64,000 nt of DNA from a bacterium (GTDB lineage: Bacteria; J088; JAWLBW01), in the NCBI GenBank assembly GCA_041690355.1, contig JAWLHK010000008.1, forward strand, positions 7,374 to 71,373, given 5' to 3'. The notes below the pieces were generated by a model. It was not told the DNA's origin. It saw only the letters and a program-made list of their open reading frames with translations, and searched no databases. Made by a program: the position numbers and the translations under genes. Shown here in pieces: positions 2,841-43,206 of this stretch. The number at the start of each line of letters is the position of its first letter. Position 1 is the first letter of the stretch.

Positions 2841-4080
2841 GATGCGCCTCTCCTTTCCACGGCGGTTCCTGCGTGTCGGCCCGCGTGTGTCCGGGGGCGC
2901 CGACGGCTTCCGCTTCGGCACGTTTGACCGTGAATTCGCGGTCCAGGCTGAAGAAGGATTCGCAGCCGTTCGCCGTTACGAACACCGTGTCGGAGATGCC
3001 GCACGTCTTGTCGCCGTCGACCCCCCACATCCACGGAATGATGTGCATGGTCATCCCCTCTTCGAGCACGGTCGGATCCCCCTGCTTCAGGCTGAGCATG
3101 TACCCCTCGTCCCAGCTGGGGGGAAAAGCGATGCCGATGGAGTACCCGGAACGGGTGATGAGATGGGCGCCGACGTCGTTGTCTTCGATGATGTCGCGCA
3201 CGATGTTGTCGGCGTCGGAGACCGTCAGCCCGGGGCGGATGTACCGCTCGACCTCCTGCAGCGCGAGCATCATGCGGTCCTGGGCCTTGCGCATCGACGG
3301 CGACAGTTCATCGAGGACGACGGTGCGCATCATCGCCGTGTGATAGCGGCGGTAGCATCCGGCGACCTCGAGAAATACGTGTTCTCCCGGCTGCGCCGCC
3401 CGCCCCTCCCACGTCGCGTGGCCGATCATCGTGCGCGGCCCCGAGGTGACGTAGGGCATGACGGCCGGCGCCTCGCCCCCCGCGCGGAACATGGCGGCGC
3501 TCACGGCGGCGGCGATCTCGTTCTCGGTCGCGCCGGCACGGCAGGCCGCGATCCCCGCCCGCATTCCTTCTTCCGTGGCCGCGGCCGCCTTGCGCAGGAC
3601 GGCGATCTCGGCGGGCGACTTGCGGATGCGCCCCTGCTCGACGATGCCGAAGCAGTCGAGCAGCCGGCCGTCGCTGAACGTGGTGTGGAAGCGATCCTGC
3701 AGATAGGCGGGAAAGAAATAACTGTTCCGCTCGTAGCCGATGTTGCGGCCGGCCAAGCCAAATTCGTGAAGCGAAGAAACGAGCATCTGAATGGCGTCGC
3801 CCGTATCCCAGTACGGCCGCGTGCGGTCGACCCAGGTGCGCGCGTGAACGTTCGACTCCTCCATCTTGCGCGTGATCATGAACGGCTCGTCGTCGAGCGG
3901 CACGACGAGCGCCTGGAAGAAGCTGTATCCGGTCGTCTGGTAATCCGTCAGATAGAGCAGATTCTCGGGATCGCTGATGATGACGGCGTCGAGCAGGCGC
4001 CTTGCCATGCGCTCCCGTAGTTCCCCCAGGCGCCGCTCGTACTCGGCGAAGGGGAAGGTCATGTCGTCGCGCCGTTTCAT
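2812..4080 (-). CDS. M24 family creatinase/Xaa-Pro dipeptidase-like hydrolase (candidate ectoine-hydrolase DoeA-like)
   Basis: Creatinase N-terminal-like region plus M24 metal-ligand region (HxxGxxxGxxxHE-like, MHIIPW); 4-nt overlap with upstream aminotransferase stop. Confidence 0.75.
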   Translation of the reverse strand: MKRRDDMTFPFAEYERRLGELRERMARRLLDAVIISDPENLLYLTDYQTTGYSFFQALVVPLDDEPFMITRKMEESNVHARTWVDRTRPYWDTGDAIQMLVSSLHEFGLAGRNIGYERNSYFFPAYLQDRFHTTFSDGRLLDCFGIVEQGRIRKSPAEIAVLRKAAAATEEGMRAGIAACRAGATENEIAAAVSAAMFRAGGEAPAVMPYVTSGPRTMIGHATWEGRAAQPGEHVFLEVAGCYRRYHTAMMRTVVLDELSPSMRKAQDRMMLALQEVERYIRPGLTVSDADNIVRDIIEDNDVGAHLITRSGYSIGIAFPPSWDEGYMLSLKQGDPTVLEEGMTMHIIPWMWGVDGDKTCGISDTVFVTANGCESFFSLDREFTVKRAEAEAVGAPGHTRADTQEPPWKGEAHHADRDRPEH

Positions 4081-7744: not shown

Positions 7745-8899
7745 CTAGGGCGCCGAAGTGACCAGGGCCCGGTAAAGGGCCCCCCAGCACCAGAGCTCGC
7801 CGCCGGACTTGGTGGCACAGTTATAACCGCCCCGCAAGCTGCGTGAGGCGGCGACGGTCTCCCAGGGGCCCCCCGCCACCTTGACCGGGTGCTCGCGCGG
7901 TTCCGTCGTCCCGTCGCCGAGCTCACCGTACGAATTCCACCCCCAGCACCAGACCTCGCCCGCGCTATCCAGAGCGCAGCTATGGCCATCCCCAGCCGAA
8001 ATCCTGCGCCAGTCTTCTTTCTCCGAGAGGAGACGGGGCACTGCGCTGTCCTTGCCCACGCTGGGTGAAAGATTGCCCCAGCAATACAGGCGTCCGTCTG
8101 ATGCAATCCCGCACGTGTAAAAACCACTGGCGGCCAGCTCCCTGAACGTGACCCCCGGAAACATGACCGGACGCGTGACCGGTTCCGTAGAGCCGCTGCC
8201 CATAAGAGATCTCCTCGAGCCCAGACACCACGCCCGTTGCGCGGGATCCAGGGCGCATGCATGCAACGCGCCAGCCGTGAGGCTGCTCCATCCGGCCGGT
8301 TCGGTTACCGGCTCGGGAGATTCCTGATTGGGCAGGAAAGAGCCCCAGCACGACCAGACCCCCTGCGGGTTCGTCATGCAGGCGATCCGCTCGCCGATCG
8401 CCAGAGCGCTCATGGGCTCTTTCTCCCATGCATGCGCAACCCATGGCGTCGGTTCGTCACCGAACCACGGCCACTTCGTGAAAAGCTCTTCTCCCCAGCA
8501 CTCGAGCCTTGACGCCCCGAAGGCACAGTCGTTTGTCGCGCTGTGCGTGAGCGAGTCCGAAAGGTCTGTTACCTTCCGGGGCTCGACGGCAAAAGCATTC
8601 GTGTCGTCGACCCCGAGGCCATAGACTCTGTTACTGCCCAGACACCAGACGCCCCCGCTGCCTCTTGTGCCGCAGAGGTGAAAGATGGAGGGTGCGAGGA
8701 TCCGCCAGTCCGTGACCATACCTATCCGCACCGGGGTAAGGTAGTACTCCACCGTATGGTCAACCCGTTCGGTCTGCACGGCTTGCGAACCGCAGCCGGC
8801 AACTGCGACGACGAGAAGTGCCAGGCAGAGTCTGGCTTTCCACAGAATCGGTAGTGTAGTGAACCGAGCCGTTGCCGACCGAAGAATCGTGGGAGTCAT
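7745..8899 (-). CDS. RCC1-repeat (regulator of chromosome condensation-like beta-propeller) lipoprotein
   Basis: Repeated CWG(W)N..GELGDG-type RCC1 motifs (CWGWNSYGELGDG); lipobox AGCGS near N-terminus. Confidence 0.7.
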   Translation of the reverse strand: MTPTILRSATARFTTLPILWKARLCLALLVVAVAGCGSQAVQTERVDHTVEYYLTPVRIGMVTDWRILAPSIFHLCGTRGSGGVWCLGSNRVYGLGVDDTNAFAVEPRKVTDLSDSLTHSATNDCAFGASRLECWGEELFTKWPWFGDEPTPWVAHAWEKEPMSALAIGERIACMTNPQGVWSCWGSFLPNQESPEPVTEPAGWSSLTAGALHACALDPAQRAWCLGSRRSLMGSGSTEPVTRPVMFPGVTFRELAASGFYTCGIASDGRLYCWGNLSPSVGKDSAVPRLLSEKEDWRRISAGDGHSCALDSAGEVWCWGWNSYGELGDGTTEPREHPVKVAGGPWETVAASRSLRGGYNCATKSGGELWCWGALYRALVTSAP

Positions 8900-24251: not shown

Positions 24252-24998
24252 TCACTCGGCCGCCTTCTTTTTCTTCTTCGGCTTTTTTTGTGGCTCGCCA
24301 TCGACCGAAGAGAGCGCGCGCTCCAGATCCCGGCCGGCCGCATCCGTCGTTCTGCGGACCCCCGCCCAGCGGCTCGCATCTGTGTACACCGAGAAGAAGA
24401 GGCCGTAGGTCAGGCCGCCGTAGCGGAACCCGCCGTGGGTCCCGACATCGAATGGCGCCGGGCTCGCGTAGCCGCCTTCGAGCGTAATCGCGAACGGTCC
24501 CGCCCAGGGCGCCCAGGCGAGCCCCAGCGTGCCCGACAGCTGCGGGAAGAAGCTGTTCTCCACATGGTCTTCTGCGCCGTAGCCGGTCAGGCTCGAGCGC
24601 AGCCACGGAAATTCGGCCGCTACCTGGGCGTAGCCGCTCAGACTCGGCAGAAACCGCTGTGTGCGGCGCAGGCCGAAGTAGGGGTCGACGATGGTGAGCG
24701 TCGACGTCAGCCCCTCGAGTTCGGCGTCTTCGCTGCCGAAGCGCAGCCCGCCCACGTATTCGGCCTTGCCGTACAGATGTCCGGACACCTGGACGTCGAG
24801 CAGGTTGAAGGTGCGAACGCTCCCGACATCCCAGAAATCATCGTCGGCCGTGTGATAAGGGGCGAAGATGCCGTCGGTCGTCTGCACGTTGTGAAAGCCG
24901 AACCGCAGTTCCGCGGCCTCTGCAGACCCGGCCGGGAACGTTGAGAGCGCGAATGCCGCTGCGAGAAGAAGGCCGGCCGTTTTCGGGAAAGGTTTCAT
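24252..24998 (-). CDS. Secreted protein, possibly an outer-membrane beta-barrel, with a lysine-rich C-terminal tail
   Basis: Signal peptide MKPFPKTAGLLLAAAFALS; alternating hydrophobic pattern; C-terminal Phe-containing strands; KKPKKKKK tail. Confidence 0.45.
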   Translation of the reverse strand: MKPFPKTAGLLLAAAFALSTFPAGSAEAAELRFGFHNVQTTDGIFAPYHTADDDFWDVGSVRTFNLLDVQVSGHLYGKAEYVGGLRFGSEDAELEGLTSTLTIVDPYFGLRRTQRFLPSLSGYAQVAAEFPWLRSSLTGYGAEDHVENSFFPQLSGTLGLAWAPWAGPFAITLEGGYASPAPFDVGTHGGFRYGGLTYGLFFSVYTDASRWAGVRRTTDAAGRDLERALSSVDGEPQKKPKKKKKAAE

Positions 24999-25003
24999 CG
25001 TGC

Positions 25004-26533
25004 TCATTCTCCCCTCCGATCGAGGATGCCGTCGACGAGAAAATCGGTCTGCTCCTGCGTGCGGGCTGCCGCCGGATCGTGGAAGAGAATCGAACCGTAG
25101 GGATAATCGAGCAGCGCGAACAGAGAGCCGCCCTTGCCAAGCGTGCCGATGCGCAGCGGATAGAACGGCAGGTCCTCATGATCACGTGTCAGATCGAGCG
25201 CCTCGATCTTGCCCGTGCGCAGGTTGAGCGCCACCAGATCGGCGAAGTTCTCGAGGCGCAGAAACAGATGGGCGCCGTCGGGGGTCATGACCGCTTCGGC
25301 GATGCGGTCGGGGAGCTCTACCGGGCTGAAGGCTTCGGCATAGTTGACGTACGTGAACGAGTCGCCCGCCCCGTCCTGCCCGCGGTGGATGGCCACCGAG
25401 CTCTGTCCGTCGGGGGCGTGCAGGATCTCGTCGGCGCGCAGCTGGAAGGGAATGACGACGACGTGGCCGGTGCGCACGTTGAGGCGGTAAATCGACGGCG
25501 CCCCTTTGGCCTGGTGCATGAGCACCCTGCGGCCGTCGGGCGTCGCGACGAGGGTATCGGGCTTGCTCAGGATGTCGGGCATGCGCACGGTCACGGCGCG
25601 GTTCAGGTTGTCGACGTTGAACACCGAGATCGTCTTGTTTCCGTTGAGCACATAAAGCAGCCGCGTCTCGCCGGTGTCGCTGCGCGGAAAAATCGTTTCC
25701 GCGTCAGCCGCGAGCGGGGGGCCGAGCGCCAGCGCGACCGGCTGCTCAACGTCCTGGGCGAGAAAGTTCACCGGCGGCAGATCGAGCGCGGTGTCGGTGG
25801 CGACCGAGAGAATCTCGTCGCGCCCCTGGATGAGCACGAAGACCCGTCCTGCCGTCTGCACGGCCCCGGCCGGCCGTTCGCTCAGGTTGACCTGCACGCT
25901 GAGCGGCCGCGTCTGTTTCCAGTCTTCGCCCGGATCGGCTTCGAAAAGCCGCTCCAGCTTCACCTGCGCCATCTGGCCGGGGGAGAAGAAAAGGAGCCGC
26001 GTCTCGCCGTCCCTCTCGTAAAACGCAATCACGTCGGGGGGCGAGCCCACGGTGAACTCGGCCGCCTCGCCGGTGGCACGGTCGAGCACCGTCATCTGAT
26101 TCGGATCGACGATACCGGGCGCGTCGCCTCCCGGCGTGGCGCGCAGCAGGAGCCAGCGGCCGTCGGGCGACTCGTCGAGGCGATCGCAATACCGGCAGAC
26201 GGCAAAGGTCGCGGCCGTGGCCCCGTCGGCAGAAAGCAGCGTGAGGCGCCCGCGGGCCGGATCGATCCACGCGGTTCCGCCGCCGCCGGCCAGGGCACGG
26301 GCAATCGTGGGCTTGCCGCTCGGATAGAACGGAACGCGCCCGCCCGGGTGCAGCACGAATCCCTGCTTCCACGCGGGATCGTAGACGGCCACCCGTCCGC
26401 CGGCGCCCACCGCCTGCAGCCGGTCTGAGAAGGTTGCTGAATCCCGAGTGTCGCAGCCTGCGAGAAGCAGGGTCGCCCCAAGCAGCCCGGTTCCGAGAAT
26501 CTTTCGCCATGCGCTCGCATGTACCATGGTCAC
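25004..26533 (-). CDS. Lipoprotein with beta-propeller-like repeats
   Basis: Lipobox LLLAGC; repeated hydrophobic/Asp-Gly blade-like segments. Confidence 0.55.
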   Translation of the reverse strand: MTMVHASAWRKILGTGLLGATLLLAGCDTRDSATFSDRLQAVGAGGRVAVYDPAWKQGFVLHPGGRVPFYPSGKPTIARALAGGGGTAWIDPARGRLTLLSADGATAATFAVCRYCDRLDESPDGRWLLLRATPGGDAPGIVDPNQMTVLDRATGEAAEFTVGSPPDVIAFYERDGETRLLFFSPGQMAQVKLERLFEADPGEDWKQTRPLSVQVNLSERPAGAVQTAGRVFVLIQGRDEILSVATDTALDLPPVNFLAQDVEQPVALALGPPLAADAETIFPRSDTGETRLLYVLNGNKTISVFNVDNLNRAVTVRMPDILSKPDTLVATPDGRRVLMHQAKGAPSIYRLNVRTGHVVVIPFQLRADEILHAPDGQSSVAIHRGQDGAGDSFTYVNYAEAFSPVELPDRIAEAVMTPDGAHLFLRLENFADLVALNLRTGKIEALDLTRDHEDLPFYPLRIGTLGKGGSLFALLDYPYGSILFHDPAAARTQEQTDFLVDGILDRRGE

Positions 26534-28056
26534 TCCGCTTCGGTACCCAGCAGGTACCCGGTAAGAACTTCGCGATCGGTTTCGACGCTGGCGGCGCTGG
26601 CCGTCACGTCGAGAAAAAGAATGCGCCCCGCATCGTGCTCCTGCGTGACGAAGGCGTGGCCCCCCGCCAGCGGCATGGCGCTCAGGAACAGCGGCTTCGC
26701 GTCGAGGGCATGGGCCGCGTGCAGGCCGTTGCGCAGCGAGAGGGTCACGAGGTAATCGGGTTTCTCTGTGGTGAGGAATGCAAAGTCGCCGTCGGGGCTG
26801 AAGGCGATGCCGTGGATGTCCCCCGCAAGTTCGATGGCCGGCGCATCGCCCGTGGCCAGGTCGAGCATCGACACGACAGGACCGCCCAACGCGCTGCTTC
26901 CGGCGCGGTGCACGATGAGCGCGCTGCGGCTGTCGGGAGCCGGGATCGCGGCCGCCACGGGGGCGACGAGCGGCACGTCGGTGATACTGTCGTCACCCGG
27001 ATCAAAGATTGCCACGGCCGACAGGTTCGCCGCCGCCGTGAAGAGAATGCCGCGCGAGCCGTCGGGGGTGAACTCGGTCTGGGCGTAGGGGTGCGGGCTG
27101 GTGACGGCCGCACTGAAGGTCACCTCCGTCGCGCCGACGGCGAAGCGGCGCAGCCGGTAGCGTGAAGGATTGCGATCCGAGACGTAGAGCACGTCGGCGT
27201 CGGCGCTCAGATCCATGTCGGTGGCCACGCTGTCGCCGGCCACTGAAGACGCAATGCCGTCGGCGAGGCGCACGGCCCGCACGCCGTTCCGGTCCGCTTC
27301 GCGGAAGAACGCCCAGCCGCCGTCGTTGGTGAGCAGCGCCTCTTCGAGCGTCCCGAAGGTCGACGTCGTGAAGGGGATCGGGCTCGCCGTCGCCGTCGCC
27401 AGATTGAGCAGCGTGCCCCGCGCGTCGGTAGCCGCCAGCGCCAGCGGCGTTCCATCGTTCCCCGTCGCGAGCACGATGGCGCGCGGCGCGAAGCCGAGGG
27501 CGCGCGAGACGACGCGCCCGGCCGCGATGTCGATGATCGAGACGACGTCGAGCGAGCGCGCCCCGCCGTCGACCGCGTCGCCGTCGAGCGCGGCCTTGTC
27601 GACGTAGCCGACCCCGAACCCCGACGGGTGAAAGACGATGTCGTTGACGTCGGCCGGGATGCGCACGTTCCGCAGATCTCCAGAGGCGGCGTCGAGGAGG
27701 CTCACCGTGTGGTCGCCGCGGTTGAGCACGAGCACATGCTGCGGCGTCGTGCGGATGATGCCCGGCTCGAGCCCGGTGCGGATCAGGCTGATTTCATGCG
27801 GCCGCGCCACCGAGATGCGCGATATGGAGTCGATGCTCGGATTGGCGACGTACAGGTACTCTTCGGTCACTCCGGGCGCGACGCCGAGAAAGGCGCGTGT
27901 GACGACCTCGGTTTCGGGCGGGAGCGTCGTATCCGTGACGTCGTCGCCGATGCCGCCCGGACGGCCGTCTCCCTCCACGGCGCTGTCGTAGGCGCCGGAG
28001 CAGGCGACCGAACCGAGCACGAACAGCAGTGCGCCGTGGAGCAGGGTCTTATTCAT
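26530..28056 (-). CDS. YVTN-family beta-propeller lipoprotein (paralog 1)
   Basis: Lipobox VACSG; YVANPSIDSISRI-type YVTN repeat; about 60% identical to the next gene. Confidence 0.6.
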   Translation of the reverse strand: MNKTLLHGALLFVLGSVACSGAYDSAVEGDGRPGGIGDDVTDTTLPPETEVVTRAFLGVAPGVTEEYLYVANPSIDSISRISVARPHEISLIRTGLEPGIIRTTPQHVLVLNRGDHTVSLLDAASGDLRNVRIPADVNDIVFHPSGFGVGYVDKAALDGDAVDGGARSLDVVSIIDIAAGRVVSRALGFAPRAIVLATGNDGTPLALAATDARGTLLNLATATASPIPFTTSTFGTLEEALLTNDGGWAFFREADRNGVRAVRLADGIASSVAGDSVATDMDLSADADVLYVSDRNPSRYRLRRFAVGATEVTFSAAVTSPHPYAQTEFTPDGSRGILFTAAANLSAVAIFDPGDDSITDVPLVAPVAAAIPAPDSRSALIVHRAGSSALGGPVVSMLDLATGDAPAIELAGDIHGIAFSPDGDFAFLTTEKPDYLVTLSLRNGLHAAHALDAKPLFLSAMPLAGGHAFVTQEHDAGRILFLDVTASAASVETDREVLTGYLLGTEAE

Positions 28057-29563
28057 CGTGCGTCCCCAGGAGATAGCCGGTCAGGATTTCGGTCTCGTGC
28101 TCGACGCTCGCCAGGGTGTCGGTCACGTCGAGAAACAGGATGCGGCCGGCGTCGTGTTCCTGCGTGACGAAGGCGTGACCCCCTGCGAGGGGCAGCACGC
28201 CGAGAAACAGCGGCGCCTCGCCGAGCGCTTCCGCTCGGTACAGGCCGTTGCGCAACGAGAGCGTGAGCAGGTAGTCGGGCGATTTCGTCGTGACGAAGGC
28301 GAAGGCGCCGTCGGGGCTGAAGGCGAGCCCGTGCAGATCGCCCTCGAGCTCGATGGCGGGCGCCTCGCCGGTGTCGAGGTTCAGCAGCGTGAGCGCCGCG
28401 CGGGAGAAGAAGCCGCCGGCGCCGTCTCCCTCGTGCGCGAGAATGGCCGTGCCGCTGTCGGGGGCCATCCACAGGGCGCTGACGGGGCGCACGACGGGAG
28501 CTTCGAGTACGCCGCCGTCTGCGGTCGCGAGGATGCCGACTCCGGCGACCGACCCGCCCCCGGCGAACAGCAGCGCGCGGGTGCCGTCGGGCGTGAGCTC
28601 CACCTGCGTATACGGAGTCGCGACCGTCACCGTGGTCACCGGGGTAATCGCGGCGGCCCCGACGGCATAACGGTGCAGGCGGAAGTCGTTGTCGGCCTCG
28701 GCCACGTAAAGCGAAGCGCCGTCGGGGCCAAGTTCCGCATCGCTGACGGTAATCCCGGCGGCCACCGTCGCCGCCTCGCCATTCGCCAGCCGGACGGCGC
28801 GCAACCCCTTGTTCCCCGCGAGGCGGAAAAGCGCCCAGGCGCCGTCGGGCGTGAGCAGGGCTTCTTCGATCTCCGGAAGCGAAGCCGACGTGAAGGGGAC
28901 CGGCGTCGCGGCAGCCGTGCGCAGGTCGAGAAGGGCTGCCCGGTTCTCGCCGGCAACAAGCGCCGTCCAGGTACCGGCGAACCGGATGGCCGCGGGCGCG
29001 AAGCCGAGGGCGCGCGAGACGGCCGTTCGACCCGGAATGTCGAGGGCCGTGATTACGTCGAGGGCGCGCGTGCCGCCGTCGAGGTCGGAGTCGGTCACGC
29101 GTTCGCGGTTCACGAAGCCGAGTGCATAGTTGCCGTGGTGGGCGACGTCGTTGATGTCCTTGGGCAGGCGCAGCGTGCGCACGCTGTGGTCGGCGCGGTG
29201 CACGAGGCTCACCGAATGTTCCCCCTCGTTCAGCACGAGCAGGTCGGTCGGCGTCGCGTGAATGAGTCCCGGCTCGAGCCCCGTGCGGATCAGATCGATG
29301 GTGTGCGGCCGGGCAATGCCGATGCGCGAGATGGAATCGAGGCTCGGATTGGCCACGTAGAGATATTCCTCGGTCACGGCCGGCGCGACGCCGAGAAAGT
29401 GCAGGCTCACGATCTCCGACTCCCGGGGGAGCGGCCCCCCCTGGCCTGCGGGGTCGGGGTCGACCAGGTCGTCGAGCCACTCGCGCGAGGCCGCGTCGCC
29501 GCAGGCAACCATGGCGACCAGCGAGGCCATGAGGATCGGGAGCAGACGGGGCAGTCGCGTCAT
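28049..29563 (-). CDS. YVTN-family beta-propeller lipoprotein (paralog 2)
   Basis: Start MTRLPRLLPILMASLVAMVACGD; shares the C-terminus AGGHAFVTQEHDAGRILFLDVT with paralog 1. Confidence 0.6.
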   Translation of the reverse strand: MTRLPRLLPILMASLVAMVACGDAASREWLDDLVDPDPAGQGGPLPRESEIVSLHFLGVAPAVTEEYLYVANPSLDSISRIGIARPHTIDLIRTGLEPGLIHATPTDLLVLNEGEHSVSLVHRADHSVRTLRLPKDINDVAHHGNYALGFVNRERVTDSDLDGGTRALDVITALDIPGRTAVSRALGFAPAAIRFAGTWTALVAGENRAALLDLRTAAATPVPFTSASLPEIEEALLTPDGAWALFRLAGNKGLRAVRLANGEAATVAAGITVSDAELGPDGASLYVAEADNDFRLHRYAVGAAAITPVTTVTVATPYTQVELTPDGTRALLFAGGGSVAGVGILATADGGVLEAPVVRPVSALWMAPDSGTAILAHEGDGAGGFFSRAALTLLNLDTGEAPAIELEGDLHGLAFSPDGAFAFVTTKSPDYLLTLSLRNGLYRAEALGEAPLFLGVLPLAGGHAFVTQEHDAGRILFLDVTDTLASVEHETEILTGYLLGTHDE

Positions 29564-29809
29564 ACGGAATTCCTCGAGAAAGCGGAATGGATCCGGTTCG
29601 CCCGGTTCGCGGAGCAAGAAGCATACCATAGTCCATCGCTGAGCCTCACGCTTGGGGTAAGGGCGGATCCAGGCCTGGAATCCGGAGGGTGGAATGCGGA
29701 ATGGCCGGTCCCTGTACGACATTGGTGTCACAGAGGCAGGCGGAAGAAGGGCTTGCGCATTTAACGCAATGCGTCAATAATATGGGCAGGTCCCGGTTGG
29801 AGGATATGC

Positions 29810-30801: not shown

Positions 30802-31035
30802 ATGAAGAAAGCCGGCATCTACGAAGCCAAGACACGCCTGTCTGAATTGATTCGCGACGTTCGTCGCGGCGAAGAGGTGACAATTCTCGACCGCGGTAAA
30901 CCCGTTGCCCGGTTGGTTCCCCTCGAAAAGCCGACGCACACCGATGCCGTGACCCGTTTTCGGAACCTGCGCGCCGAAGCCCGGACGGTCACGCAGGCCG
31001 AGGTTCGCGAGTGGATCTCCGCCGGGCGCAAATGA
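30802..31035 (+). CDS. Phd/YefM family antitoxin
   Basis: MKKAGIYEAKTRLSELIRDVRRGEEVTILDRGKPVARLVP matches the Phd/YefM pattern. Confidence 0.75.
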   Translation: MKKAGIYEAKTRLSELIRDVRRGEEVTILDRGKPVARLVPLEKPTHTDAVTRFRNLRAEARTVTQAEVREWISAGRK

Positions 31036-31460
31036 CGCCTGTCGTGCTGGATGCGTCAGCCGCCGCCAACTTCCTCCTCCCGGATGAGAGCAATACCTAT
31101 GGCGAGAAGGTGCTGCAGTACCTGGAGCGGTTCGGGGGCGTGGTGCCCACGCTCTGGGATTATGAAATCGGTAATGTCCTGACCATGGCCCTGCGCAGGA
31201 AGCGCATCGATCGCAGATTCAGGGATGTCGCCGTGTCTCTGCTTCTCGATCTTCCGCTCACGTACTGGAATCGCGGCGGCGCGGGCGCCCTTCTCCATGC
31301 GCCGCAGATCTGCGACCTCGCCGAACGGCTCTCGCTCAGCTTCTATGCCGCGAGCTATCTCTATGTCGCCAAGGTCGAAGACTTGCCGCTTGCGACCCTG
31401 GATACCGGATTGCGTACGGCGGCCCGCCGCAGCAAAGTCACCGTCTTCGCGGGTGATTAA
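31032..31460 (+). CDS. vapC: VapC PIN-domain toxin (intact)
   Basis: Start MTPVVLDASAAANFLL (PIN Asp1); conserved D residues; ATGA overlap with the antitoxin. Confidence 0.75.
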   Translation: MTPVVLDASAAANFLLPDESNTYGEKVLQYLERFGGVVPTLWDYEIGNVLTMALRRKRIDRRFRDVAVSLLLDLPLTYWNRGGAGALLHAPQICDLAERLSLSFYAASYLYVAKVEDLPLATLDTGLRTAARRSKVTVFAGD

Positions 31461-31472
31461 TCGGGAAGGCTG

Positions 31473-32042
31473 TCAGCGGCCGCCCTCGTCGTCGCGTCGC
31501 TCGCGCAGTTCGCGGAAGAACGTGCGCAGCGCGTGGCTGCAGGGTTCCTGCAGAACCCCCTCGGTGATCGACACCTTGTGGTTCAGGGGAAACTCATTCA
31601 GGTTCGCGAGCGAACCGAAGGCCCCCGCTTTGGGATCGCGGCAGCCGTAGACCACCCGATCGATTCGCGCCAGGATGATGGCGCCCGCGCACATGAAGCA
31701 CGGCTCGAGGGTCACGTAGAGGGTCGTGCCGGTGAGCCGCCAGGCGCCGAGCTTCCGGCTCGCCTCGCGGATGGCAATCAGCTCCGCATGCGCCAGCGGG
31801 TCGGCTTCGCTCTCGCGCAGATTGTGGCCGCGGCCGACGATTTCACCCTCGCGCACGAGCACGGCCCCGATGGGCACCTCGCCCTTCGCGCGCGCCGCGG
31901 CCGCTTCGTCGAGCGCCGCCTGCATCCACCGGCAGTCTTCGGCAGAACCGGCGGCTTCGGCGTCAGCAATGCCTGCGGCTTCCCCGCGCGAGGCAGGCGC
32001 GAGGGGGTCCTGTTCGGGGGAATCTGGATCGGGCCGGCTCAC
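31473..32042 (-). CDS. tadA: tRNA-specific adenosine(34) deaminase
   Basis: CMP/dCMP deaminase zinc motifs HAELIAI and PCFMCAGAI. Confidence 0.8.
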   Translation of the reverse strand: MSRPDPDSPEQDPLAPASRGEAAGIADAEAAGSAEDCRWMQAALDEAAAARAKGEVPIGAVLVREGEIVGRGHNLRESEADPLAHAELIAIREASRKLGAWRLTGTTLYVTLEPCFMCAGAIILARIDRVVYGCRDPKAGAFGSLANLNEFPLNHKVSITEGVLQEPCSHALRTFFRELRERRDDEGGR

Positions 32043-32092
32043 GCGAAGTACGGTACCACACGCGGCGCCGGGGCGGGAGTCGCCGGGGGGGA

Positions 32093-32130
32093 CGAAAAAA
32101 GGGGACCGGTCCGACCGGACCGGCCCCCCT
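32093..32130 (-). terminator. Rho-independent terminator (GGGGGCCGGTCCG-loop-CGGACCGGTCCCC followed by TTTTTT on the minus strand) ending the small-ORF array before tadA
   Basis: Direct reading of the GC-rich stem plus T-run on the minus strand. Confidence 0.55.
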
Positions 32131-32150
32131 CGTCCTTAGGAAGGACGGAC

Positions 32151-32228
32151 TTACTGCGGATCGACGATCTGGGTGACCAGCGTGATCGCGCGGACTTCCT
32201 TCTTGACGAACAGCGGCTTGTTGTACAT
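32151..32228 (-). CDS. Small ORF 1 of a tandem triplet: 25 aa, MYNKPLFVKKEVRAITLVTQIVDPQ
   Basis: ATG preceded by AAAGGGA SD; not in ORF track (<60 aa); paralogous to the next two ORFs with synonymous third-position changes. Confidence 0.6.
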   Translation of the reverse strand: MYNKPLFVKKEVRAITLVTQIVDPQ

Positions 32229-32324
32229 GGGATATCCCTTTGTCATGATGGTTGAACGGCCGGGGAGCTGCCCTGTAAGGCCGGTCCGCCGCGAGCGACG
32301 GACCGGCACCCTATCGTTTTCCCG

Positions 32325-32411
32325 TTACTGCGGATCGACGATCTGGTCGACCGGGGTCACCAGCGTGATCTTGCGAACGAGCTTCTTGGCGATGGCGGGT
32401 TTGCTGTACAT
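32325..32411 (-). CDS. Small ORF 2: 28 aa, MYSKPAIAKKLVRKITLVTPVDQIVDPQ
   Basis: GAGGAGTG SD; upstream hairpin; 3-codon insertion relative to copies 1 and 3. Confidence 0.6.
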   Translation of the reverse strand: MYSKPAIAKKLVRKITLVTPVDQIVDPQ

Positions 32412-32475
32412 GGCTCACTCCTCGGTAAGCATAGGTTACGAATGGTTTCGCCGTCCCGAAGGACGGCGAACCGGG

Positions 32476-32553
32476 TTACTGCGGATCGACGATCTGGGTG
32501 ACGAGCGTGATCTCGCGAACGACCTTCTTGGCGAACATGGGCTTGTTGTACAT
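32476..32553 (-). CDS. Small ORF 3: 25 aa, MYNKPMFAKKVVREITLVTQIVDPQ
   Basis: GGAGGA SD; same conserved termini as the other two copies. Confidence 0.6.
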   Translation of the reverse strand: MYNKPMFAKKVVREITLVTQIVDPQ

Positions 32554-32741
32554 GTGATCCTCCAACGAGTGAGGTTACGATGAGTGCGAACGCCGGTTTA
32601 CCCTGCGCTCACACTTCCACCGTAGCATTGCTCAACCGGAGGCAAGTCTCCGGGCGGTGACGAAGACCCCGGGGGGGTTGACAACCTGGAGCACGGCCCG
32701 CAAGGAAAACGCGGGGCGGGGGGAGCCGTCCGGAGCGGACT

Positions 32742-36507: not shown

Positions 36508-36597
36508 GGAGAGGTGGCCGAGCGGCTGAAGGCACGCGACTGGAAATCGCGTAAACCTTAACGGGTTTCGAGGGTTCGAATCCCTCCCTCTCCGCCA
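36508..36597 (+). tRNA. tRNA-Ser (anticodon GGA), class II, CCA encoded
   Basis: GGAGAGGTGGCCGAGCGGCTGAAGGC...anticodon loop CUGGAAA...T-arm GAGGGTTCGAATCCCTC...CCTCTCCGCCA; TATAAT box about 40 nt upstream. Confidence 0.85.
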
Positions 36598-36700
36598 ATT
36601 CAAGTTACGAGTGACGAGTTACGAGTGACGAGTATTCGGCAAGGGCGTGGGTATCCTGGGCCCTTGTCGGCTCGGCGCTCAGTGCTTGGCGCTTTTCGCT
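36598..36700. repeat. Composite element copy (GTTACGA/GTGACGA heptamers plus a GGCAAGGGCGTGGGTATCCTGGGCCCTTGTC hairpin plus GCGCTCAGTGCTTGGCGCT)
   Basis: Direct reading immediately 3' of tRNA-Ser(GGA). Confidence 0.6.
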
Positions 36701-36918
36701 CGTGCCACGGCCGCGGCTGGCGATGGTGACCAGGTCCCGCGCGATGTACGGTCTGTGAACCCCGTCAGGCCCGGAAGGGAGCAGCGGTAACGGTTCCGGC
36801 ATGCGCCGCGGTCAAGCCTGGTCACCTTCTCCATCCGTGGCGCCCGCCTGCCGGTTGCCCTCTGCCATCGGCGCTGCGAGGCGAATTCTGATACGCTTTA
36901 GAATTCCGCGGCTCGACC

Positions 36919-42539: not shown

Positions 42540-43206
42540 CTACTTCCGCGTGCGCTGTTCCTCGTCTTCGCGTCGCGGCGCTTCCTCCTCGTGGGTGTGC
42601 TCGCGCGGGAAGTCGGGTTCGAACTCGTGCAGAAAGCCGTCAATCTCGTTCGAGACCGGCTGGCTCTCGGCGGCGAGCTGAAACTCGATGTTCGGCCGGT
42701 CGATCAGCCTGCGATCGATGATCGGAATGCGCCGCCGCTCCCCGAAGAGCTCGAGCACCTCGGGGGTCAACCGCGGGCGTTCGAGGGCCAGCCGCCGGTT
42801 CTCGCCCGGGTGGCTCACGAACAGACGGTACAACCCCTCCTCCTTCAGCTTCATGCGCGCCATGACCTGCGGCGGCACGTCGCGCAGCCGGAACTCGAAG
42901 GCGAGAAACGTCTCGTCCTCTTCGGGGATGATGGAATAGGGTCCGTCGGCGATGCAGCGGCCGCCGTCTTCGCCCACGTCCGAAATGGCGTCTTCGAGCC
43001 GGTTGTAGACCCGATCGACCACCCCCCAGACGTGATGGTGGCGGATGGACGAGGGGTCGGGCAGGCGCACGTCCTGCAGGAGCACGCGGCGCACCGGACT
43101 CTCCGTACGCGGGTCGAAGATCAGCTCGACGTACTCGGTCGGATTCCTGAACTTGACGATAGGAAAGTAGTAGACGTAGAGGTGCCCGAAGTCGACGACA
43201 TCCATA
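42540..43206 (-). CDS. Hypothetical protein
   Basis: Start MDVVDFGHLYVYYFPIVKF; acidic C-terminal tail; no motif recognised. Confidence 0.45.

Follow-up and report, generated by a model that had tools for sequence, protein, structure and literature searches.

Tandem arrays of 25- to 36-residue peptide genes upstream of tadA in an uncultured bacterial lineage: possible docking-leader precursors

The precursor gene pqqA is small and followed by a hairpin, and several copies of it per genome are known. The mycofactocin precursor MftA, about 30 amino acids (aa) long, is conserved in its N-terminal recognition part and at its extreme C-terminus, only the C-terminal residues being used, and it is known only from clusters with mftB-F. 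The staphylococcal psm-alpha peptides (phenol-soluble modulins) and the multi-peptide leaderless bacteriocins form amphipathic alpha-helices in which Leu, Phe and Lys abound, with a dedicated ATP-binding cassette (ABC) exporter. The N-terminus of PqqA is the leader bound by PqqD, and a Glu and a Tyr of PqqA are cross-linked to make pyrroloquinoline quinone (PMC10906245); lasso precursors share a conserved leader motif, YxxPxL, at positions -17 to -12 (PMC10368454, PMC6784204). Here I describe a tandem array of three tiny peptide genes in a stretch of 64,000 nucleotides (nt) of bacterial DNA (the window: contig JAWLHK010000008.1, positions 7,374 to 71,373, of assembly GCA_041690355.1). To judge from the searches below, an array of this sort is of a known kind, but its family matches no described one and is linked to no enzyme.

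An earlier examination of the letters of the window, made without databases (the sequence-only reading), had placed three minus-strand open reading frames (ORFs) here, each with its own Shine-Dalgarno (SD) sequence, with GC hairpins in unconserved spacers and a strong rho-independent terminator before tadA. All of this has held up. The ORFs lie where they were claimed to lie and encode exactly the peptides that were quoted, the SD sites GGAGGA, GAGGAG and AAGGGA were located, and a consensus scan calls an intrinsic terminator at 32130-32095. In order of transcription the array consists of:

32476..32553 (-): copy 3, the first transcribed; MYNKPMFAKKVVREITLVTQIVDPQ, 25 aa, short type; SD GGAGGA at 32563-32558
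32444..32472 (-): inter-copy GC hairpin 1, without a U-tract; spacer RNA fold of -28.6 kcal/mol
32325..32411 (-): copy 2, the middle one; MYSKPAIAKKLVRKITLVTPVDQIVDPQ, 28 aa, Pro-linker type; SD GAGGAG at 32423-32418
32280..32307 (-): inter-copy GC hairpin 2; spacer RNA fold of -34.7 kcal/mol
32151..32228 (-): copy 1, the last transcribed; MYNKPLFVKKEVRAITLVTQIVDPQ, 25 aa, short type; SD AAGGGA at 32240-32235
32095..32147 (-): two terminal hairpins; fold energy of -44.5 kcal/mol

All three ORFs begin with ATG, with a purine-rich SD 5-9 nt before the start, and degenerate motif searches of the 64 kb find exactly three copies against 0.00-0.02 expected in shuffled sequence. The ORFs of these paralogues are 75-90% identical, while the spacers are 15-50% identical in global alignment. 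It is the second terminal hairpin (32130-32099), followed by a T6 run, that is called the terminator and closes the array (the T-run extends to 32095), and by this predicted terminator the array is insulated from tadA. Equivalent terminators stand at the array ends of the four related contigs described next, and across the family most ORFs have a strong hairpin 3' of them, many with a U-tract. The locus reads as a self-contained mini-operon of three independently translated genes, apparently strongly expressed.

Then there is the evidence from relatives. Peptides of this length are too short for homology search alone, and the three were concatenated to serve as one query. This query returned two proteins: P0001, from the source genome itself, where NCBI has mis-called copy 1 as an over-extended ORF of 52 aa, and P0002, a 57-aa 'hypothetical protein' of JGI that has MYTQPKLVKKTVRAITLVTQIVDPR as its C-terminus. 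On its contig (L001) stand six tandem paralogues, then tadA. Further arrays were found by way of TadA, on contigs that encode its nearest relatives (about 67-74% identical): four copies in L006, three in L012 and at least three in L008, a contig that begins inside the array region. These four metagenome contigs add 16 members, for a total of 19 in five loci, each with an SD, and in 5/5 loci the array lies directly upstream of tadA and is co-oriented with it. A family hidden Markov model (HMM) built from the 18 distinct sequences gives the 19 members 48-64 bits (63.7 for copy 3, 62.8 for copy 2 and 58.8 for copy 1 of the window) and no other six-frame segment in the window and 15 loci more than 9.7 bits; the same scan found no further or degenerate copy in the window. 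Relatives whose TadA is equally similar (L002/3, L004/5, L007, L009-11) have no array, nor do contigs L013 and L015 add any. The family is lineage-restricted: its place in the chromosome, beside tadA, is fixed, and some close relatives have the array while others lack it.

As judged by RecR, the host belongs to a tight clade of about 15 metagenomic sequences (73-79% identity), named organisms reaching at most 66%; from these identities the host lineage is taken to be uncultured, without close named relatives. L001 and the window share blocks of gene order and an Hsp70-like protein that is 83% identical. Between copies 4 and 5 of L001, the gap of 184 nt holds a remnant, ...GNGHVQIVDP-stop (L001 8281-8373 (+)), whose GNGH matches the Gly-rich tail of copy 6 (8619-8729), GLGNGHGRGNAYGLDKP. 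It looks like a decayed copy, which fits a birth-and-death turnover of copies.

Are these ORFs proteins or merely repeated DNA? Among the 18 alignable members, mean column entropy at codon positions 1, 2 and 3 is 0.51, 0.38 and 1.02 bits, the third position thus having 2-2.7 times the entropy of the first two. The ratio of nonsynonymous to synonymous differences (pN/pS) is 0.32 when pooled, 0.29 when taken within loci and 0.32 between them, with pS at about 0.6, near saturation. Residues that never change (Y2, T16, L17, V18, T19 and the D and P of the C-terminus) draw on several synonymous codons. The first copies of the window and L012 differ in one amino acid and, synonymously, in nine codons, and between L006 and L012 the ORFs are 86-95% identical, the spacers and leaders 66-75%. 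The codon pattern says that the ORFs are a translated family under purifying selection on amino-acid sequence, not a DNA repeat, as the sequence-only reading had claimed; the comparison with related genomes that it called for finds the ORFs conserved in four contigs, with pN/pS of about 0.3. One of its supporting points has to be trimmed. Synonymous third-position changes do distinguish the window copies, though only within the first 19 codons, because the last 21 nt, CAGATCGTCGATCCGCAGTAA, are identical in 3/3 copies. When loci are compared, synonymous variation is abundant throughout the ORF.

An alternative view is that the repeat is non-coding or has a dual function, as a small RNA or something like a type I toxin-antitoxin system, and that the ORFs are incidental or encode membrane toxins. 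Tandem modules of promoter, short transcript and terminator do resemble small-RNA or type I toxin arrays, and the block at the start of the transcript is conserved. However, the codon-position pattern, the pN/pS of about 0.3 and the preservation of ORFs amid unconserved spacers speak of selection on protein and largely refute the purely non-coding version. There is no Rfam match and the leaders have no conserved structure. A role as membrane toxins is disfavored because the peptides, whose longest apolar runs are 2-5 residues, have no transmembrane segment and carry a charge of +1 to +5. I give this view hardly any weight.

What sort of peptides are these? All members are cationic (net charge +1 to +5) and 25-36 residues long. 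An N-terminal module of 19 residues, M-Y-x-x-P-x-[F/L/I/C]-x-[K/R]-K-x-V-x-x-[I/V]-T-L-V-T, is followed by a linker of 0-9 residues, either Q or a Pro-led stretch of 1-9, and a C-terminal module, [I/V]-[I/V]-D-P-[Q/R/S]. Y2 is invariant, P5 is found in 18/19 members and F, L or I at position 7 in 16/19. One L001 copy ends instead in a Gly-rich tail of 17 residues. Short and Pro-linker subtypes occur together in 4/5 arrays. The sequence-only reading had it that the ends are invariant and the middle variable, which does not stand as worded: the family varies in the linker after TLVT and at scattered positions (3, 4, 6, 8, 11, 13 and 14). The members are rich in Val, Ile and Thr and lack a transmembrane segment, Trp and Gly-Gly; Cys occurs in only 5/19 and is never conserved. 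The longest apolar run is 2-5 residues, and the maximum Kyte-Doolittle mean over 15 residues lies between 0.5 and 1.95. No amphipathic-helix signature was found, the helical moment being modest and not conserved across subtypes. I infer that peptides of this length, with so few structure-fixing residues, would not fold on their own, and that they would therefore act by docking on a partner.

These properties bear on the idea that the peptides are exported and active unmodified, in the manner of leaderless bacteriocins, phenol-soluble modulins or pheromones, with a transporter encoded elsewhere. Tandem ORFs with their own SDs are what one sees in the psm-alpha operon and in multi-peptide leaderless bacteriocins; the array peptides are cationic, the paralogues diversify, the distribution is patchy, as of an accessory trait, and short hydrophobic-acidic C-termini such as PIIIDPQ recall the mature parts of pheromones of Gram-positive bacteria. 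But the amphipathic helix is missing and beta-branched residues abound; there is no Gly-Gly leader, signal peptide or Trp, and no locus has an adjacent gene for an ABC transporter, immunity, or a receptor or regulator. I consider export improbable.

The control region argues for a unit with its own expression, and it also bears on the role of tadA. Its features in the window are:

32675..32683 (-): upstream box TGTCAA[C/G]CC, about 50 nt upstream of the -10 element; candidate regulator-binding site
32607..32627 (-): extended -10 promoter-like element and conserved start-of-transcript block, TGCTACGGT-GGAAGTGTGAGC; consensus TGnTAnnnT-N5-9-GTGAGC
32554..32606 (-): 5' leader of the first ORF, containing the SD GGAGGA
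32037-32058 (-): second composite motif, TGGTACCGT-N7-GTGAGC, upstream of tadA and downstream of the array terminator
31473..31925 (-): tadA (tRNA adenosine-34 deaminase), its real start at about 31925; 150-aa P0003, with Pfam matches; context, not a proven functional part

The combination of TGn with TAnnnT is the form of an extended -10 sigma-70 promoter, and I infer that the element acts as one; GTGAGC would then be at or near the predicted start of the transcript. Four loci share TGnTAnnnT, then GGAnnTGTGAGC, upstream of the first ORF. The extended -10 block is kept in all loci with upstream DNA and is repeated before individual copies in L008, where after each preceding terminator a copy has its own control region, so that the repeat unit is a full module of promoter, leader, ORF and terminator. 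The upstream box, invariant in the four-locus alignment, occurs once per array in L001, L006 and L012 and before a second unit in L008. Only two composite promoter motifs stand in the window, where 0.075 are expected, one before the array and the other before tadA; the tadA upstream regions of the other loci lack it. The pair suggests common regulation, or an array control region derived from the tadA promoter.

Could the peptides be cis-acting leaders, tandem attenuators of read-through into tadA, with ribosomes stalling at ...IVDP-x-stop or through Val, Ile, Thr and Leu codons? In every locus tadA comes immediately after the array and in the same orientation, a hairpin or terminator follows closely 3' of each stop codon, the C-terminal D-P-x-stop is kept and branched-chain residues abound in the peptides. 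It is hard to square this with L008, where behind the terminators of units 1 and 2 come a new control region and a further peptide gene, leaving nothing to regulate. In the window tadA has its own promoter-like element downstream of the array terminator, and so it has in L006 (TTGAAT-18-TATACT). The distance from ITLVT to D-P varies by 0-9 residues, a poor fit to a sensor in the exit tunnel; Arg codons, which might have linked the peptides to the tRNA-Arg substrate of TadA, are not conserved, none being found in the L006 copies; and array-less relatives express tadA without any array. I regard attenuation as very improbable.

A search for conserved secondary structure across six 5' leaders gave no consensus pairs, on which ground the idea of a riboswitch there was rejected. 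Two observations on the same region stand apart. A short A-A-C-C(-T/A) element lies 10-20 nt upstream of most SDs in the family (for example CGTAACCT, TCAACCA and ACAACCA), in the window at 32565-32575, 32431-32437 and 32250-32256 (-) and at equivalent places in L001, L006, L008 and L012; it could be a translation or processing signal. L006 has, about 220 nt upstream of its first peptide gene, a tandem heptanucleotide (GACTCAA) in some 6-7 copies (2872-2925 (+)).

I propose, tentatively and at less than even confidence, that the arrays encode docking-leader peptides, precursors or substrates processed by machinery encoded elsewhere. The combination of Y-x-x-P-x-Φ (Φ, a hydrophobic residue) with the beta-strand-prone ITLVT would form a docking or leader element, of the kind bound in PqqA and lasso leaders by PqqD-type recognition domains of peptides that are made on ribosomes and modified after translation (RiPPs). 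Such an element would present the short C-terminal part, variable in length, to an enzyme for processing or modification whose gene lies elsewhere in the genome, and the hairpin after each ORF would provide for a high ratio of peptide to enzyme, as described for pqqA. This reading is favored because a conserved N-terminal module precedes a C-terminal part that varies in length and sequence, and because the leader-like motif statistically resembles the leaders of PqqA and lasso precursors. Compared with PqqA by hhalign, the family gives a probability of 63% over 18 columns. A PqqA of the Klebsiella type beats 2000/2000 of its shuffles against the family HMM, and two other gammaproteobacterial PqqAs and a lasso leader reach p of about 0.01-0.03.

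A good deal weighs against the proposal. The likeness to PqqA that the sequence-only reading had noticed is statistically detectable but goes no further than the N-terminal octamer, M-[WY]-x-K-P-x-F, and it fails for two alphaproteobacterial PqqAs, which are not significant in the shuffle test; all PqqA and lasso sequences in these comparisons, moreover, were supplied by me and not taken from database records. The C-terminal Φ-Φ-D-P-x is itself conserved, so there is no classic hypervariable core, and no curated precursor model in Pfam or NCBIfam matches the peptides. Nearly all RiPP precursors have one maturase or more linked to them. Yet Pfam finds in the 64-kb window no gene for a radical-SAM (S-adenosylmethionine) enzyme, a RiPP recognition element (RRE) or PqqD protein, YcaO, LanB/M, a P450, a graspetide-type ATP-grasp, a peptidase or an exporter, and the flanks of the arrays in L001, L006, L008 and L012 hold none of these either. 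Nor does any gene co-occur with the arrays except tadA and genes that array-less relatives also have. The sequence-only reading was right to see no modifying enzyme in the window; its suggestion that these are RiPP precursors stays a candidate reading, no maturase, RRE protein, peptidase or exporter adjoining the array in any of five loci and only tadA being consistently linked. If the proposal were to be carried further, the peptides would be precursors of a new RRE-dependent class of ribosomal product, a small modified peptide or something like a cofactor made from Φ-Φ-D-P-x, with an unlinked maturase, in a deep-branching uncultured lineage. I think this unlikely. Such a system would be invisible to cluster-based genome mining because its maturase would not be linked to the precursor genes.

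The main rival reading is that intact peptides of 25-36 aa are active unmodified, binding a partner (an enzyme, a regulator, the ribosome or a nucleic acid) by strand addition through ITLVT...IVD, with the copies supplying dosage and the two subtypes being variants of partner or affinity. No maturase is linked in any of the five loci. The conservation of the peptide at both ends recalls a binding protein more than a leader with a hypervariable core, and the single amino-acid change against nine synonymous codon changes between orthologous first copies bespeaks strong purifying selection. Each unit of L008 is an autonomous module of promoter, ORF and terminator, and the promoter architecture, rare in the window, that the array shares there with tadA would fit a co-regulated role of the housekeeping type. 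On the other side, very few soluble, unmodified, non-membrane proteins as small as 25 aa have a known function in bacteria. The array is dispensable, being missing from the equally related L002, L004, L007 and L009-L011; no candidate partner co-occurs with it; and the leader-like N-terminal motif is left unexplained. I regard this rival as rather unlikely, though one to be taken seriously.

It remains to say why such a family should have been overlooked. Its 19 genes are annotated in none of the loci. Public calls are wrong over 4/5 arrays (the window, L001, L006 and L008), giving over-extended ORFs (52 and 57 aa) or antisense ORFs of 41-238 aa, and across the L012 array nothing is called. The wrong calls are:

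window 32151-32309 (-)
L001 7914-8087 and 8326-8523
L008 221-937
L006 3366-3637

The sequence-only reading had said that the ORFs fall below gene-caller cut-offs and match nothing curated, and it had suggested family searches; these found no true relative in Pfam, NCBIfam, PDB or the protein representatives, and no PqqA or other precursor model that matches. Scans of the three window peptides with Pfam and NCBIfam gave no match at E<=10, NCBIfam gave none for all 18 distinct members, a profile search of PDB gave none, and Rfam held nothing relevant. An exhaustive HMMER profile search of 1.84 billion protein representatives returned only the two mis-called ORFs and one chance match, a linker between FN3 repeats in a 2115-aa protein, which was rejected. 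Two scans of 185,579 species genomes with degenerate patterns found 0 matches, the source genome itself not being recovered there (not a representative, or masked), and two pattern scans of JGI metagenome contigs also gave 0; the second genome pattern was the first metagenome pattern, which matches every copy then known. Nothing matched among viral contigs, plasmids and phages. The family is absent from protein databases because genes of 25 codons are below the limits of gene callers, and wrong calls or none were made.

The neighborhood has offered no partner. Pfam annotation of essentially all substantial ORFs in the window gives housekeeping and regulatory genes, including tadA, pdxH, the signal recognition particle (SRP) RNA, dnaX-ybaB-recR, RNase D, RNase T, kinases, GshA/GshB and a VapBC-like pair. 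As the sequence-only reading had it, tadA lies downstream of the array and a PAS/GAF histidine kinase upstream (PAS-GAF-GAF-HisKA-HATPase); the kinase adjoins the array only in this genome and was rejected as a partner. In L001 and L006, the upstream gene encodes an unannotated protein of 221-224 aa, and its homologue in the window is 10 kb from the array:

42540-43205 (-): 221-aa protein, homologue of the array neighbor in L001 and L006

This protein is conserved at 59-76% identity in L001, L004, L006 and L007, and in L001, L006 and L007 tadA or the array comes right after it. It has no match in Pfam, NCBIfam or PDB, and a single-sequence AlphaFold model is unusable (mean predicted local distance difference test score of 36). 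It too was rejected as a partner, for it is also next to tadA in the array-less L007. A link to the substrate of TadA was dismissed in the same way: Arg codons are unconserved, and Tyr2 shows no editing-type UACG motif.

Some further observations concern the surroundings of tadA. Downstream of it, four consecutive large ORFs (251, 509, 508 and 560 aa; window 24252-29731 (-)) form an uncharacterized operon, with only a weak LpqB-type beta-propeller match and a far sub-threshold match to hydrazine synthase beta. A VapBC-like pair, a small ORF and a PIN-domain protein (window 30802-31460 (+)), is convergent with tadA, and an antitoxin-PIN pair also follows tadA in the array-less L004/L005. A tRNA-Ser(GGA) gene and a small SRP RNA gene (window 36508-36826 (+)) stand just upstream of dnaX-ybaB-recR; the tadA...ffs-dnaX-ybaB-recR neighborhood is the same ancient arrangement as in the Bacillaceae contig L015.

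Whatever they do, these peptides offer a clean and testable case of the small proteins that lie hidden in uncultured bacteria: a family kept in 3-6 copies under purifying selection, with its own conserved control region, despite missing annotation. The size of its genes, 25 codons, has kept it out of protein databases of billions of sequences. If the N-terminus docks on an RRE-type enzyme, then precursor arrays can be fully unlinked from their maturases, a blind spot of current RiPP mining. Should they act unmodified instead, few soluble bacterial proteins with a conserved function would be shorter.

How, finally, does the family compare with the systems that I began with? For a graspetide precursor, no adjacent ATP-grasp macrocyclase was found: the only ATP-grasp in the window is the glutathione synthetase GshB (GSH-S_ATP, 209 bits), next to GshA and about 30 kb from the array. 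T16, T19, K10 and the single Asp, potential donors and acceptors, are invariant, and one ester or amide link is chemically conceivable; the Thr-Asp spacing varies by 0-9 residues. A double-glycine-leader or class II bacteriocin precursor was rejected, since no member has GG and no C39-peptidase ABC exporter is nearby. So was a type I toxin of the hok/ldr/ibs kind, for lack of a hydrophobic transmembrane helix, and so was a transcription-attenuation leader, on account of the L008 terminators with new control regions and peptide genes behind them and of the promoter-like element that tadA has to itself.

The psm-alpha and leaderless bacteriocin genes are likewise tandem ORFs, with 20-30 codons and separate ribosome-binding sites, missed by annotation and without leader or signal peptide; the array peptides, in contrast, are rich in Val, Ile and Thr, have Pro at positions 5 and 24 and are linked to no exporter. 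MftA resembles them as a short precursor with both ends conserved, but there is no sequence similarity or NCBIfam match, and the last residue varies here (Q/R/S). With lasso precursors the family shares the leader motif, Y2-x-x-P5-x-[F/L/I]7 fitting YxxPxL and one L001 copy being exactly YTQPKL. With Y at -17, however, position -2 is the invariant Leu17 and the core would begin at Thr19, with no Gly, Ala, Ser or Cys at position 1. It would have 7-10 residues in most copies (15-18 at most, in the two longest L001 copies), and the short type would have its Asp at core position 5, with only two residues after it. This is too short for a ring and threaded tail, and neither the window nor the related loci have B, B1/B2 or C genes; a lasso precursor was rejected.

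PqqA is almost the same in size, 25 aa here against 23-24 (PqqA ranges over 23-29), with an [IV]-T-L-x segment in the equivalent place. Its N-terminus reads M-W-x-K-P-x-F where the family has M-Y-x-K-P-x-F, and apart from the Klebsiella type the HMM scores of PqqAs are marginal or not significant. The peptides are not PqqA itself, an identity rejected because no curated model matches and E-x3-Y is absent. As the sequence-only reading had recognized, the Glu/Tyr pair is gone: its two residues align to the variable position 14 (E/K/A/V/R/S/I/Q) and to the invariant Val18, the sole Tyr being Y2. The family has a conserved C-terminal Φ-Φ-D-P-x module that PqqA does not, and no pqqB-E lie in the 64-kb window or in the flanks of L001, L006, L008 and L012. 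The PqqA and lasso comparisons do not establish homology; both point to one sort of element, a short leader bound by PqqD-type recognition domains.

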